Below are positions 8,392 through 10,430 of a DNA stretch of 64,000 bases, piece after piece; positions within the stretch are counted from its first letter, which is position 1; each line of letters opens with the position of its first letter. The stretch is from the sequence record PX418922.1, one strand, 5' to 3'. Source of the DNA: a phage. The position numbers and the translations under genes are program-made. The notes under the pieces are model-generated. The model made no database searches. It saw only the letters and a program-made list of their open reading frames with translations, and was not told the origin of the DNA.

Positions 8392-8463
8392 GGCCCTGTA
8401 GCTCAATGGGAGAGCTGTCGGCTCATAACCGATAGGTAGCTGGATCGAAACCAGCCAGGGCCA
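8392..8463 (+). tRNA. tRNA-Met (anticodon CAT)
   Basis: Hand-folded cloverleaf: 7-bp acceptor GGCCCTG/CAGGGCC, D-stem GCTC/GAGC, anticodon loop CTCATAA, T-arm, encoded CCA. Confidence 0.7.
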
Positions 8464-8468
8464 CCAAC

Positions 8469-8540
8469 GTCTTTATGGTGTAATGGATAGCACAGGAGTC
8501 TTCTAAACTCTTAGTCAAGGTTCGATTCCTTGTAAAGACA
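8469..8540 (+). tRNA. tRNA-Arg (anticodon TCT)
   Basis: Hand-folded cloverleaf: acceptor GTCTTTA/TAAAGAC, anticodon loop CTTCTAA, T-loop TTCGATT, CCA encoded. Confidence 0.65.
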
Positions 8541-8739
8541 CCAGAACATTTTAACATGAATTAGCTCAAGTGATTTGAACCCACTACTGATCATGGTGGC
8601 AGAGAATGAGGCAAGTATGTCAGACATTATAAACAAAGGCCACGGTTATATTAGAAGACATAAATGCTCGAAGAGCACCGCTCGTGGAGAACGGGGGTTG
8701 GTGGAGTCACCATTCATGGTAAAATGTTTTAAAAAACTA

Positions 8740-8769
8740 TTGACAACTAACATTATTTTATGTTAGATT
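8740..8769 (+). promoter_or_regulatory. sigma70-like promoter (TTGACA-N17/18-TAGAT)
   Basis: CTATTGACAA family member directly upstream of tRNA-Ser. Confidence 0.5.
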
Positions 8770-8777
8770 ATAAGTAT

Positions 8778-8865
8778 GGAAGGGCAAATCGACGTGGCGA
8801 CGAAAACGGTCTTGAAAACCGCCGAGCTTGAAAGAGCCTTGGGAGTTCGACTCTCCCTCCTTCCG
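8778..8865 (+). tRNA. tRNA-Ser (anticodon TGA), long variable arm
   Basis: Acceptor GGAAGGG/TCCTTCC, anticodon loop CTTGAAA, long extra arm, T-loop TTCGACT, CCA encoded. Confidence 0.65.
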
Positions 8866-8872
8866 CCAGATT

Positions 8873-8955
8873 GGTAGATTGGTGAAATGGTAGCCACGAC
8901 AGTTTGCTAAACTGTAGTCGGAAACGGCGTGTAGGTTCGAGTCCTACATCTACCG
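8873..8955 (+). tRNA. tRNA-Ser (anticodon GCT), long variable arm
   Basis: Acceptor GGTAGAT/ATCTACC, anticodon stem ACAGT/ACTGT with loop TTGCTAA, extra arm, CCA encoded. Confidence 0.7.
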
Positions 8956-9088
8956 CCAAGTTCTTTTTAATATAGCTTACTTTAGCAGAGTAAATCTTCG
9001 GCAAGTGGCGGTAACCACTTTACCGATAACTCATAGTTAGTGGTGTGAACACTGGCTATTTTAAAAAGAATTTAAATATTAGCATTTA

Positions 9089-9173
9089 GGTGAGTTAATT
9101 CCGTAGGGGTAGCGGGGCAGACTGTAAATCTGTTATCATTGCGATTCGGGTGGTTCGACTCCATCACTCACCA
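9089..9173 (+). tRNA. tRNA-Tyr (anticodon GTA), long variable arm
   Basis: Acceptor GGTGAGT/ACTCACC, anticodon loop CTGTAAA, extra arm hairpin, CCA encoded. Confidence 0.7.
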
Positions 9174-9182
9174 CCAAATTAA

Positions 9183-9265
9183 GATGAGTTGGCTGAATGG
9201 TTTAAGCGGCGGACTGTTAATCCGTGTTCGAAAGAACGATATAGGTTCAAATCCTATACTCATCG
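9183..9265 (+). tRNA. type II (long-arm) tRNA, anticodon loop reads CTGTTAA (GTT by position; identity uncertain)
   Basis: Acceptor GATGAGT/ACTCATC, 3-bp D-stem, variable-arm hairpin GTTC-GAAA-GAAC, T-loop TTCAAAT, CCA encoded; a GTT anticodon with a long extra arm is atypical. Confidence 0.5.
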
Positions 9266-9275
9266 CCAGAATTAT

Positions 9276-9351
9276 GGACTTGTAGAGTTAAGGTAAACCC
9301 CCAGTCGCCAAGAGGCTTCTGGAATTGCAGGTATCGAATCCTGCCGAGTCC
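9276..9351 (+). tRNA. tRNA-like element (degenerate; possible pseudo-tRNA)
   Basis: Acceptor GGACTTG/CGAGTCC and T-arm-like GCAGG-TATCGAAT-CCTGC (8-nt loop) present but no canonical anticodon arm; no CCA. Confidence 0.3.
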
Positions 9352-9358
9352 CAGCTTT

Positions 9359-9430
9359 GCTCCTATAGTATAATGGCTATTACAACGGTTTTGTAATCCG
9401 TGGATCTCTGTTCGATTCAGAGTGGGAGCA
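9359..9430 (+). tRNA. tRNA-Thr (anticodon TGT), tentative
   Basis: Acceptor GCTCCTA/TGGGAGC, T-arm CTCTG-TTCGATT-CAGAG, CCA encoded; anticodon stem has a T-T at the loop-closing pair. Confidence 0.5.
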
Positions 9431-9707
9431 CCAACACAACATTAAGAGCACTGTGATTGATCGTCGTATCCTGTGCACAAGGTCTGTTCGAAAGACAGTG
9501 TTCTTAGTATTGTGTTGATCACACAAAAAGAGTTACCTGAAACTTGACCGGAGTAGGGTTGGATGGGGCAAAAGAAGAAGCGGCTCTCCCATCGACAGCA
9601 AGAAGAATAATATTTGACTTTGGTTTTGTATTATTTTAAGTTAGCTTACCGAACGTAGGGCTAGTCACCCAACGGGATACTCGTCACTGTCCCACTCAAT
9701 AAAACTA

Positions 9708-9737
9708 TTGACAACCAATAGTAAAATGTAGTATAGT
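9708..9737 (+). promoter_or_regulatory. sigma70-like promoter (TTGACA-N18-TATAGT)
   Basis: CTATTGACAA family member upstream of tRNA at 9749. Confidence 0.5.
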
Positions 9738-9748
9738 AAAGATGTAGG

Positions 9749-9819
9749 GCGTTCTTGGTGTAGCGGTAGCATTCCGTCCTTCCAAGTCGGCGGCACGAGT
9801 TCGATCCTCGTAGAACGCT
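9749..9819 (+). tRNA. tRNA-Gly (anticodon TCC), tentative
   Basis: Acceptor GCGTTCT/AGAACGC, T-arm ACGAG-TTCGATC-CTCGT, anticodon loop CTTCCAA, CCA encoded; one mismatch in anticodon stem. Confidence 0.5.
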
Positions 9820-9920
9820 CCAAATTATTTAATAAAGGGTTGCCAGAAAACTTTCTCTTTTACTCATGGTTTTCTCCTTCTCTCACACCTCTTCTGGTTG
9901 CCCTTCATTAAATGATTTAT

Positions 9921-9993
9921 TGGTTTGTAGTGTAGTCAGGTAGCACACGACACTTTGACTGTCGTAGGTTTGGTTCAAATCCAGACAGACCAG
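9921..9993 (+). tRNA. tRNA-Gln (anticodon TTG)
   Basis: Acceptor TGGTTTG/CAGACCA, anticodon stem CGACA/TGTCG with loop CTTTGAC, T-loop TTCAAAT, CCA encoded. Confidence 0.7.
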
Positions 9994-10001
9994 CCATATA
10001 A

Positions 10002-10075
10002 CGGAATTTAGCTCAGTTTGGTAGAGCATACGCTTTGGGAGCGTAGGGTCGCAGGTTCGAATCCTGCAATTCCGA
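10002..10075 (+). tRNA. tRNA-Pro (anticodon TGG)
   Basis: C1-G72 acceptor (CGGAATT/AATTCCG) as usual for bacterial tRNA-Pro, anticodon stem TACGC/GCGTA with loop TTTGGGA, T-loop TTCGAAT, CCA encoded. Confidence 0.7.
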
Positions 10076-10084
10076 CCAATTTAA

Positions 10085-10155
10085 TGTTTCGTAGTTCAAT
10101 GGTAGAACCCACGACTGATAATCGTGAGACACAAGTTCGATTCTTGTCGAAACAA
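10085..10155 (+). tRNA. tRNA-Ile (anticodon GAT)
   Basis: Acceptor TGTTTCG/CGAAACA, anticodon stem CACGA/TCGTG with loop CTGATAA, T-arm ACAAG-TTCGATT-CTTGT, CCA encoded. Confidence 0.65.
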
Positions 10156-10160
10156 CCAGT

Positions 10161-10230
10161 TTCCCGTTAGACTTACAGGATAAGAGTTCCACAGCTTATT
10201 GTGATGCTGGTTCGAATCCAGCACGGGATA
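10161..10230 (+). tRNA. tRNA-like element, anticodon arm not resolvable
   Basis: Acceptor (1-72 mismatch) and canonical T-arm GCTGG-TTCGAAT-CCAGC present; anticodon arm could not be folded by hand; no CCA. Confidence 0.3.
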
Positions 10231-10236
10231 CCTAAT

Positions 10237-10312
10237 AGCGGGATAGAGGAGTCTGGTCGTCCTCGCCAGTTTCATATGCTGGAGATCATTGGTTCAAATC
10301 CAATTCCCGCCT
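10237..10312 (+). tRNA. tRNA with CAT anticodon (Met, initiator or Ile2-type)
   Basis: Anticodon stem CCAGT/GCTGG with loop TTCATAT, D-stem GAGG/CCTC, T-arm ATTGG-TTCAAAT-CCAAT, CCA encoded; A1-C72 mismatch at acceptor end. Confidence 0.6.
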
Positions 10313-10430
10313 CCAAATATCGCTTGCCAGCGGTATCTTTGAAGACCTTGCCTGGTTCCTTCTAAGAGGAGGGGTGCGACTCCTTAACGCACAATTATAA
10401 TAAAGCATTTCAAATTAACAGTATTTATTA

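Follow-up and report, generated by a model that had tools for sequence, protein, structure and literature searches.

A tRNA gene with a GUU anticodon and a class II-type variable arm

The window analysed here, the whole 64,000-nucleotide stretch of DNA from a Phapecoctavirus-like E. coli phage in record PX418922.1 (G+C content 39.5%), carries a cluster of 12-14 transfer RNA (tRNA) genes at 8392-10315. One of them, at 9183-9268 on the plus strand and hereafter called the window tRNA, combines the GUU anticodon of asparagine tRNAs with the long variable arm of class II tRNAs. The 2.1 kb around this gene is 98-99% identical to the corresponding region of Phapecoctavirus (phAPEC8-like) Escherichia coli myophages such as ESCO37, nieznany and tuntematon, whose records label the gene plainly as tRNA-Asn, and 100% identical copies of the tRNA are present in many Phapecoctavirus isolates.

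ARAGORN returned a tRNA-Asn(gtt) of 86 nt at 9183-9268. The Rfam covariance model RF00005 (gathering score 29 bits) matched 9183-9265 over its full length with 62.0 bits (E = 2e-12), placing GUU at positions 34-36 and reading 12 variable-region nucleotides as an insertion. The minimum-free-energy fold reproduces the ARAGORN cloverleaf, with a z-score (-1.71) that is unremarkable by itself. The following parts were delimited:

9183..9268, plus strand: complete gene of 86 nt for a tRNA-Asn(GUU) with long variable arm and encoded CCA (ARAGORN, Rfam RF00005, 100% identical Phapecoctavirus copies annotated tRNA-Asn)
9183..9189, plus strand: acceptor stem 5' strand GAUGAGU, 7 bp with 9258-9264; G1:C72, A2:U71, U3:A70 (ARAGORN; 7/7 pairs with double changes in 19 relatives)
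9192..9207, plus strand: D arm, 3-bp stem GCU/AGC (9192-9194 with 9205-9207) and 10-nt loop GAAUGGUUUA with G18 and G19 (ARAGORN, covariation)
9209..9225, plus strand: anticodon stem-loop GCGGA-CUGUUAA-UCCGU (E. coli asnT match, Rfam alignment)
9216..9218, plus strand: anticodon GUU, for AAC and AAU (ARAGORN, Rfam, register scan)
9226..9240, plus strand: variable region of 15 nt, with stem GUUC 9226-9229, GNRA-type loop GAAA 9230-9233, stem GAAC 9234-9237 and unpaired GAU 9238-9240 (ARAGORN, minimum-free-energy fold, covariation)
9241..9257, plus strand: T arm AUAGG-UUCAAAU-CCUAU, 5-bp stem (Rfam, ARAGORN, covariation)
9258..9264, plus strand: acceptor stem 3' strand ACUCAUC (ARAGORN, covariation)
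9265, plus strand: discriminator G73 (Rfam, ARAGORN)

A first-pass annotation, made from the letters of the window, had described a tRNA at 9183-9265 with a 3-bp D stem, a GTTC-GAAA-GAAC hairpin in the variable region and CTGTTAA as the only 7-nt anticodon loop compatible with the stems. ARAGORN gives the same D stem (GCU/AGC), the 4-bp hairpin is found both by ARAGORN and in the minimum-free-energy fold, and ARAGORN, Rfam and a register scan agree on the anticodon loop. The proposed start also stands; 9265 is the discriminator, and the gene reaches 9268 once the CCA is included. In the register scan, which covered all combinations of a 5-bp stem and a 7-nt loop within the 86 nt, the GUU arm was the sole cloverleaf-compatible one with U33 and a purine at position 37. 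The register being unique, no leucine, serine or tyrosine anticodon is therefore available elsewhere in the molecule, and neither the ARAGORN call nor the covariance-model alignment, which places GUU, points to one of these isotypes. The sequence at 9183-9268 is a real phage tRNA gene with a GUU anticodon and a class II-type arm.

Amino acid identity of the window tRNA

The determinants for E. coli asparaginyl-tRNA synthetase (AsnRS) are the GUU anticodon and G73, which are sufficient when transplanted into tRNA-Lys (PMC9976931). Both are found in the window tRNA (G34 U35 U36 and G73), as they are in asnT of E. coli K-12 (sequence taken by coordinates, L195 1050-1125). Positions 9207-9225 are an exact 19-nt match to asnT positions 25-43 (C25-U43), including the whole anticodon stem-loop, whose CUGUUAA loop provides the contexts for queuosine at position 34 and t6A at position 37. 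The two molecules differ in the variable region (5 nt in asnT, 15 nt in the window tRNA), in the D stem (4 bp against 3 bp) and in the first acceptor pair (U1:A72 against G1:C72). In architecture the window tRNA departs from class I, whose variable loop has 4-5 nt, not 15 nt with a 4-bp stem.

The features of other candidate isotypes agree less well. Serine tRNAs would call for G2:C71 and, in most, A3:U70, in place of which the window tRNA has A2:U71 and U3:A70, and for an NGA or GCU anticodon, in place of which it has GUU; its arm (4 bp, with 0 and 3 unpaired nt) also departs from the serine type (4-8 bp, mostly 1 unpaired nt on each side). Tyrosine and leucine tRNAs have A73 and not G73. The 7-bp acceptor stem, 5-bp T stem and 3-bp D stem differ from the 8/4 or 9/3 arrangement and the long D stem of allo-tRNAs and selenocysteine (Sec) tRNAs, and the acceptor stem and discriminator go with asparagine rather than with serine or leucine, unlike in the nev-tRNA type. 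We consider it likely, with a probability of about 0.75, that the window tRNA is a functional tRNA-Asn, charged by the host AsnRS and decoding AAC and AAU. Judging from these elements, a mutated anticodon on a tRNA for serine, tyrosine or leucine does not account for it.

The gene would be transcribed as part of the phage tRNA cluster, and its product would be charged with asparagine by the host synthetase via GUU and G73. The charged tRNA would then decode AAC and AAU, codons whose frequency in the AT-rich phage is about 1.5 times that in its host: asparagine codons amount to 59.7 per 1000 in the long open reading frames (ORFs) of the window and to 41.4 per 1000 in E. coli K-12, with 30.3 and 14.7 per 1000, respectively, for AAU (the E. 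coli reference being a 49-kb K-12 sample handled as the window ORFs were). The remaining tRNAs of the cluster serve phage-enriched codons too (ACA, GGA, AUA, UAU, AGA, CAA and CCA).

A family of long-arm tRNAs with GUU anticodons

Relatives were searched with the pattern GGACTGTTAATCC, a gap of 15-28 and GGTTC, which matched at least 120 IMG/VR viral contigs and 71 loci in 185,579 species-representative genomes. Among the matches listed, 92 distinct long-arm GUU tRNAs were confirmed by ARAGORN, whose variable-stem calls are heuristic. ARAGORN also confirmed such tRNAs in Justusliebigvirus alia, in the T5-like phages vB_EcoS-26175III and SP15, in a Proteus Novosibvirus and in the Klebsiella phage Roth01 (166-kb genome, T4-like size); the 83-nt Asn gene of the T5-like phage GreteKellenberger is known by its GenBank annotation only. 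Many unrelated phage lineages have tRNAs of this kind.

In an alignment of 19 diverse relatives, 98% of cells are paired and 17 of the 24 pairs have changed on both sides; none of 500 shuffles reached the observed score, and in slid controls 33-45% of cells were paired. Compensatory changes occur in all five helices, the variable stem among them (4/4 pairs vary on both sides, 96% of cells paired). This covariation across helices indicates a conserved, structured RNA family and not an accident.

The acceptor stems, discriminators and variable arms compare as follows with those of other tRNAs from the same loci:

Long-arm GUU (n = 92 among the matches listed): 1:72 U:A 65%, G:C 32%; 2:71 C:G 45%; 3:70 A:U 12%; G73 97% (89/92); variable stem 3-4 bp; unpaired nt 5'/3' 0-1/3-4
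Short-loop Asn (n = 20): 1:72 U:A 50%; 2:71 C:G 80%; G73 100%; no variable stem
Ser (n = 72): 1:72 G:C 92%; 2:71 G:C 94%; 3:70 A:U 90%; N73 G 62%, U 29%; variable stem 4-8 bp; unpaired nt mostly 1/1
Leu and Tyr: A73 100% (Tyr 48/48, Leu 66/66); Tyr variable stem about 3 bp; Tyr unpaired nt 0-1/3-4

The complete serine acceptor triad (G1:C72, G2:C71, A3:U70) occurs in three of the 92 long-arm GUU tRNAs listed, and G1:C72 together with G2:C71 in 17. These statistics characterise the family as one similar to the short-loop Asn tRNAs of those loci, with asparagine-type identity elements on a tyrosine-like arm geometry.

We estimate that long-arm forms account for about 8-13 of the 120 viral contigs listed in a sample chosen by the Asn anticodon arm CGGACTGTTAATCCG alone, i.e., roughly a tenth; in these 120 contigs, the median number of tRNA genes is 11.5 with a long-arm Asn gene versus 3 with a short-loop one. 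Bacterial and archaeal genomes yielded 17 confirmed long-arm GUU cases, 12 of them within arrays that hold 7-36 tRNA genes. Among these arrays are several near-complete sets in Micromonospora and Verrucosispora, including ones of 32-36 tRNAs, which have no Asn tRNA other than the long-arm gene. In essence, the long-arm tRNA-Asn belongs to phages and mobile tRNA arrays and is very rare in bacterial genomes.

Four of the chromosomal arrays (L129, L131, L140 and L185, in Verrucosispora and Micromonospora) contain 23-36 tRNA genes within 8 kb, covering nearly all amino acids, and their sole Asn tRNA is an 89-90-nt long-arm form with a 4-6-bp variable stem. At another locus (L280, IMG/VR), a long-arm GUU tRNA has a different anticodon stem (GCAGG-CUGUUAA-CCUGC) and a variable region of 19 nt; it was found without the class II search pattern, so the family is wider than the set that the pattern defines.

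Origin of the arm

The closest relative of the window tRNA is the 75-nt class I tRNA-Asn of Salmonella phage Maynard, with which it shares 59 of 75 positions (79%), the 3-bp type of D stem, the anticodon arm and G73. The alignment contains a single indel, which lies in the variable loop, and comparison of the Maynard loop (GAUAG) with that of alia (GA-ACGAAAGUUC-UAG) reduces the difference to one block of 10-11 nt. With the Ser and Tyr tRNAs of its own cluster, its identity is no more than 63-65%. Among T5-like phages, one syntenic slot, Cys-Asn-(small coding sequence)-Asp, holds a class I Asn gene in T5 (78 nt) and SelmaRatti and a long-arm one in 26175III, SP15 and GreteKellenberger. The variable loops of both the Maynard and the T5 tRNA-Asn are of 5 nt, unlike that of the window tRNA.

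The simplest reading of these alignments is that a hairpin was inserted into, or lost from, a phage tRNA-Asn, both forms being functionally interchangeable. On the insertion side, an ordinary phage tRNA-Asn would have taken up a hairpin of 10-11 nt in its 5-nt variable loop. The same comparisons speak against the long arm being left over from a tRNA for serine, leucine or tyrosine.

When the tRNA body, leaving aside the anticodon and variable arms, was typed by nearest neighbour, a serine tRNA came out nearest for 21 of the 92 family members and a short Asn tRNA for 12, both above their background share. Since this signal is mixed, and the scores weak for the window tRNA, we relied on the direct alignment with Maynard instead. 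An origin from the adjacent tRNA-Tyr was also considered, the two acceptor stems differing only at pair 2:71 (GGUGAGU in the tRNA-Tyr, GAUGAGU in the window tRNA). This resemblance is probably a coincidence, and a Tyr origin was rejected: overall identity is only 65%, and the relation fails in phages alia and Roth01.

Long variable arms in other isotypes

Variable arms of 10-27 nt were found in the same loci in tRNAs for Cys (GCA), Thr (UGU), Trp (CCA), Ile (UAU and GAU), Glu, Lys, Gly, His and Pro. In a less biased sample, 19 of 598 tRNAs other than those for Leu, Ser and Tyr have long arms. The discriminators of these long-arm tRNAs equal those of short-loop tRNAs with the same anticodon (U73 in 7/7 Cys, G73 in 4/4 Trp, A73 in 10/11 Ile), and the long-arm isotypes, which keep their own discriminators, are therefore not disguised serine tRNAs. 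As far as these sequences go, the pattern is the opposite of that expected for mischarging tRNAs with a variable arm, such as nev-tRNAs and allo-tRNAs.

Long-arm class I isotypes are spread over the IMG/VR loci L004-L123 and L200-L307 (e.g., L008, L017, L054, L056 and L057), with variable arms of 10-20 nt and frequently with GNRA loops. The tRNA-Ile(UAU) of phage arrays almost always has a variable arm of 21-27 nt (L021, L024, L026, L028, L060, L086, L147, L203, L210, L219, L259, L291, L300 and L307), and a loop motif, CAGAUUAG or CAGAUAAU, recurs in these arms, which suggests a sequence-specific role. The reverse case also exists: ARAGORN called 53 distinct tRNAs with Leu anticodons, A73 and variable loops of 4-9 nt, mostly 5 nt, at loci L004-L194. 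They are tRNA-Leu of class I shape (compare Streptomyces coelicolor; PMC6614811), and some of them belong to the large actinomycete tRNA arrays.

Alternative explanations

Several observations weigh against an asparagine identity. The window tRNA begins with G1:C72 and not with the U1:A72 of E. coli tRNA-Asn, a pair that is typical of bacterial tRNA-Asn and a determinant for GatCAB. Class IIb synthetases such as AspRS approach the tRNA from the variable-loop side, so that an extra arm could hinder AsnRS. The phage's own tRNA-Ser(GCU) has an equally short arm of 4 bp (ARAGORN), and arm length alone therefore cannot exclude recognition by seryl-tRNA synthetase (SerRS). The family statistics describe only a subset of tRNAs, since the anticodon-arm sequence was fixed in the search pattern. 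Finally, G73, the long arm and G1:C72 all belong to the serine recognition set (PMC9976931). On the other side, the AsnRS of E. coli does not use U1:A72 as a determinant (PMC9976931).

These points lead to the idea of a tRNA that accepts serine, or both serine and asparagine, with AAC and AAU partly read as serine in a deliberate or tolerated mistranslation like that by nev-tRNAs and allo-tRNAs. SerRS disregards the anticodon, its recognition resting on G73, the long arm and the acceptor stem (PMC9976931), and the window tRNA offers it G73, G1:C72, C11:G24, a class II-type D arm and a variable arm equal in size to that of the phage's tRNA-Ser(GCU); serine tRNAs also come nearest to it, at weak scores, when the anticodon and variable arms are left aside, and 17 of the 92 listed family members have G1:C72 with G2:C71. 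We nevertheless regard serine acceptance as improbable. The second and third pairs of the window tRNA are A2:U71 and U3:A70, while G2:C71 is found in 94% of the phage serine tRNAs studied here and is 'absolutely conserved' in E. coli tRNA-Ser (PMC9976931). Across the family, U1:A72 (65%) and C2:G71 (45%) are common, the latter being an antideterminant for E. coli SerRS, and the geometry of the arm (3-4 bp, with 0-1 and 3-4 unpaired nt) is tyrosine-like and not serine-like. The closest relative is the class I tRNA-Asn of Maynard, and the long-arm variants of further isotypes retain their own discriminators. Moreover, asparagine codons make up 6% of phage codons, so that inserting serine would harm the phage's own proteins.

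A tRNA-shaped RNA acting mainly outside decoding, e.g., as a decoy or competitive inhibitor of a nuclease or modification enzyme directed at tRNA-Asn, appears more improbable still. The PARIS effector AriB does cleave tRNA-Asn(GUU), and overexpressed viral tRNAs have been raised as possible competitive inhibitors (PMC12409363); the host anticodon arm is retained exactly, including the U36-A-A-U-C|C41 context, and the cluster holds a tRNA-like RNA without a normal anticodon loop (9275-9355; T5 counterpart rna3). However, the features needed for translation are intact and conserved (7/5 acceptor-T helix, G18 G19, UUCAAAU T loop, U33, A37, G73 and CCA), the gene takes the Asn place in tRNA sets that are otherwise complete, codon demand fits decoding, and a decoy role would in any case be compatible with decoding. 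As for a decaying or chance tRNA-like sequence, some neighbours in the cluster do look degenerate (10159-10236, and 9089-9176, which is labelled pseudo in some GenBank records), but the window tRNA has one of the better Rfam scores of the cluster (62 bits), is 100% conserved in many isolates and shows compensatory changes in all helices over distant phage families; a pseudogene is effectively refuted by this covariation.

The first-pass annotation had proposed a recoded or chimeric tRNA, or a regulatory tRNA-like RNA. The molecule is chimeric in that a class II shape carries an asparagine identity set. Recoding and a regulatory function, on the other hand, are unsupported, given the host-identical anticodon arm, G73, the class I tRNA-Asn as closest relative, the Asn-like acceptor stems of the family and the Asn slot that its members occupy in arrays.

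The arm and tRNA-targeting defence

What the arm does for a tRNA-Asn can be stated only tentatively. It is plausible, though short of probable, that it is a tolerated insertion kept in helical form by compensatory change; as such an insertion would also be kept helical in this way, the covariation is no proof of an arm function. Rather more doubtfully, the arm may shield the tRNA from tRNA-cleaving defence nucleases of the host while the anticodon arm stays host-identical. The remaining probability goes to further adaptive roles, for instance in folding, in stability or in evading the modification enzymes of the host.

The PARIS nuclease AriB cuts E. coli tRNA-Lys(UUU) as well as tRNA-Thr(UGU) and, less efficiently, tRNA-Asn(GUU) at 40|41 in the context U36-A-A-U-C|N41 and has been modelled as also touching U16-U17 of the D loop; the resistant tRNAs of T5 carry substitutions in the cut context or at these D-loop contacts (PMC12409363). 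More generally, T5 tRNA variants that evade AriB or PrrC are phage Lys, Thr and Asn copies that replace the cut host tRNAs (PMC12409363, PMC11555353). In these variants the substitutions lie at or near the cleavage site, and the window tRNA has none of them. The T5 tRNA-Asn has a diverged anticodon stem (UUGUUAA-GUUGA) that breaks the AriB context, whereas the window tRNA retains the host sequence exactly at the site (U36-A-A-U-C|C41), its variable arm emerging immediately 3' of position 43. With a host-identical cleavage context, any escape from a nuclease would need an altered shape.

The arm, next to anticodon-stem positions 40-43, together with the reshaped D loop might make the tRNA a poor substrate for host nucleases that cleave tRNA-Asn in this stem, such as AriB, and phages might more broadly be breaking the class I/II rule systematically in Asn, Thr, Cys, Ile, Trp, Lys and Glu tRNAs; we consider this reading unlikely. 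Under such an anti-defence role, the host-identical anticodon arm would be kept as optimal for AsnRS, queuosine, t6A and decoding. The PARIS-sensitive phage Bas34, which encodes a tRNA-Asn, was considered as a test case for the long arm. Bas34 is SelmaRatti, with a 77-nt Asn gene of class I, so its sensitivity is uninformative on long-arm tRNAs. The long-arm tRNA-Asn of SP15 has been used in experiments as a negative control against PrrC170 only (PMC11555353), and we found no published experiments on a long-arm Asn tRNA beyond this control.

Comparison with known tRNAs

Textbooks, like recent reviews, confine long arms in bacteria to the tRNAs for Leu, Ser, Tyr and Sec and describe the arm as a key recognition signal (PMC4033280, PMC7609411, PMC9976931); the exceptions that the reviews name are nematode nev-tRNAs and allo-tRNAs, and phage tRNA-Asn is not mentioned (PMC4033280, PMC7609411, PMC9976931, PMC5389517). 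The window tRNA resembles bacterial class II tRNAs in its long arm and 3-bp D stem, with the arm geometry of tRNA-Tyr and the G73 of tRNA-Ser. It differs from them in that Tyr and Leu tRNAs have A73, Ser tRNAs have G1:C72, G2:C71, A3:U70 and longer arms, and none has GUU.

Nev-tRNAs share with it a class II shape on a class I anticodon: they have a variable arm, Gly or Ile anticodons and Leu identity elements and are mischarged with Leu (PMC3333845, PMC4033280). Unlike them, the window tRNA has identity elements that match its own anticodon, serves frequent codons and is a viral gene. The allo-tRNAs and 8/4 tRNAs also combine a long variable arm with a non-serine anticodon, some of them in phage tRNA clusters; they are distinguished from the window tRNA, with its normal 7/5 arrangement, by 8/4 or 9/3 acceptor-T helices, D arms like those of tRNA-Sec and an identity of Ser or Ala (PMC5389517). 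In the type I tRNA-Leu of Streptomyces, the boundary between classes I and II has likewise been crossed with the amino acid kept, although there the arm was lost rather than gained and the gene is cellular, not viral (PMC6614811).

The gene is already annotated routinely as tRNA-Asn and hence is not new; its long-arm design is undescribed in the literature searched. In that literature, consulted mostly without subscription journals, we found no description of a class II-shaped phage tRNA-Asn, although the phages that carry one are well studied (phAPEC8-like and T5-like phages, a Klebsiella phage of T4-like genome size and others). A conserved tRNA-Asn of this kind leaves two alternatives: an arm beside the binding surface is tolerated by AsnRS, which belongs to class IIb, or a frequent codon is misread in these phages. 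Both bear on the rules of tRNA identity. Should the anti-defence role be true, host synthetases must tolerate arms never met in cellular tRNAs. The long-arm tRNA-Asn is a test case for whether shape, beyond the sequence of the anticodon loop, plays a part in escape from tRNA-targeting immunity. For annotation, class I or II shape is an unreliable guide to the isotype of phage tRNAs.

The surrounding tRNA cluster

ARAGORN calls ten tRNAs in the cluster (Met, Arg, Ser, Asn, Thr, Gly, Gln, Pro, Ile and Met); Rfam alone adds a Sec-like Ser(UGA) tRNA (8778-8867) and the tRNA-Tyr (9089-9176), and there are two more tRNA-like stretches besides. One promoter-like site lies upstream of the Asn gene:

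8740..8769, plus strand: promoter-like site upstream of the cluster's Ser-Ser-Tyr-Asn-Thr part, TTGACA-18-TAGATT (consensus match only)

This site likely drives transcription of the tRNA at 9183-9268. A second near-consensus promoter-like site occurs at 9708 and a terminator-like hairpin at 10430; the number of promoter-like sites in the region is not above that in shuffles.

The tRNA at 8778-8867 (plus strand) is odd: its anticodon loop, CUUGAAA, has the serine anticodon UGA, it is uncalled by ARAGORN, and its best Rfam match is tRNA-Sec with 37.4 bits (threshold 47). The homologous alia gene has 90 nt and is called as tRNA-Ser(tga), and the tRNA at 8778-8867 may be related to the irregular phage tRNA-Ser species of PMC5389517. 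The tRNA-Tyr(GUA) at 9089-9176 (plus strand), with a long arm and an Rfam score of 39 bits, was missed by ARAGORN and has conflicting GenBank labels (tRNA-Tyr, tRNA-Pseudo-GTA and tRNA-OTHER). Downstream of the Asn gene, 9275-9355 (plus strand) would form a tRNA-like RNA with acceptor and T arms, without a normal anticodon loop and without an Rfam match; its 5' part (GUAGAGUUAAGGUAAACC) is similar to the 'rna3, putative tRNA-like RNA' of phage T5 (NC_005859 33877-33949), which is directly downstream of the T5 tRNA-Asn, as 9275-9355 is of the window tRNA. A degenerate tRNA-like stretch at 10159-10236 (plus strand), between tRNA-Ile and the last tRNA-Met, retains a T arm (GCUGG-UUCGAAU-CCAGC) and acceptor-like ends; in phage alia, a tRNA-Leu lies at roughly the corresponding place.

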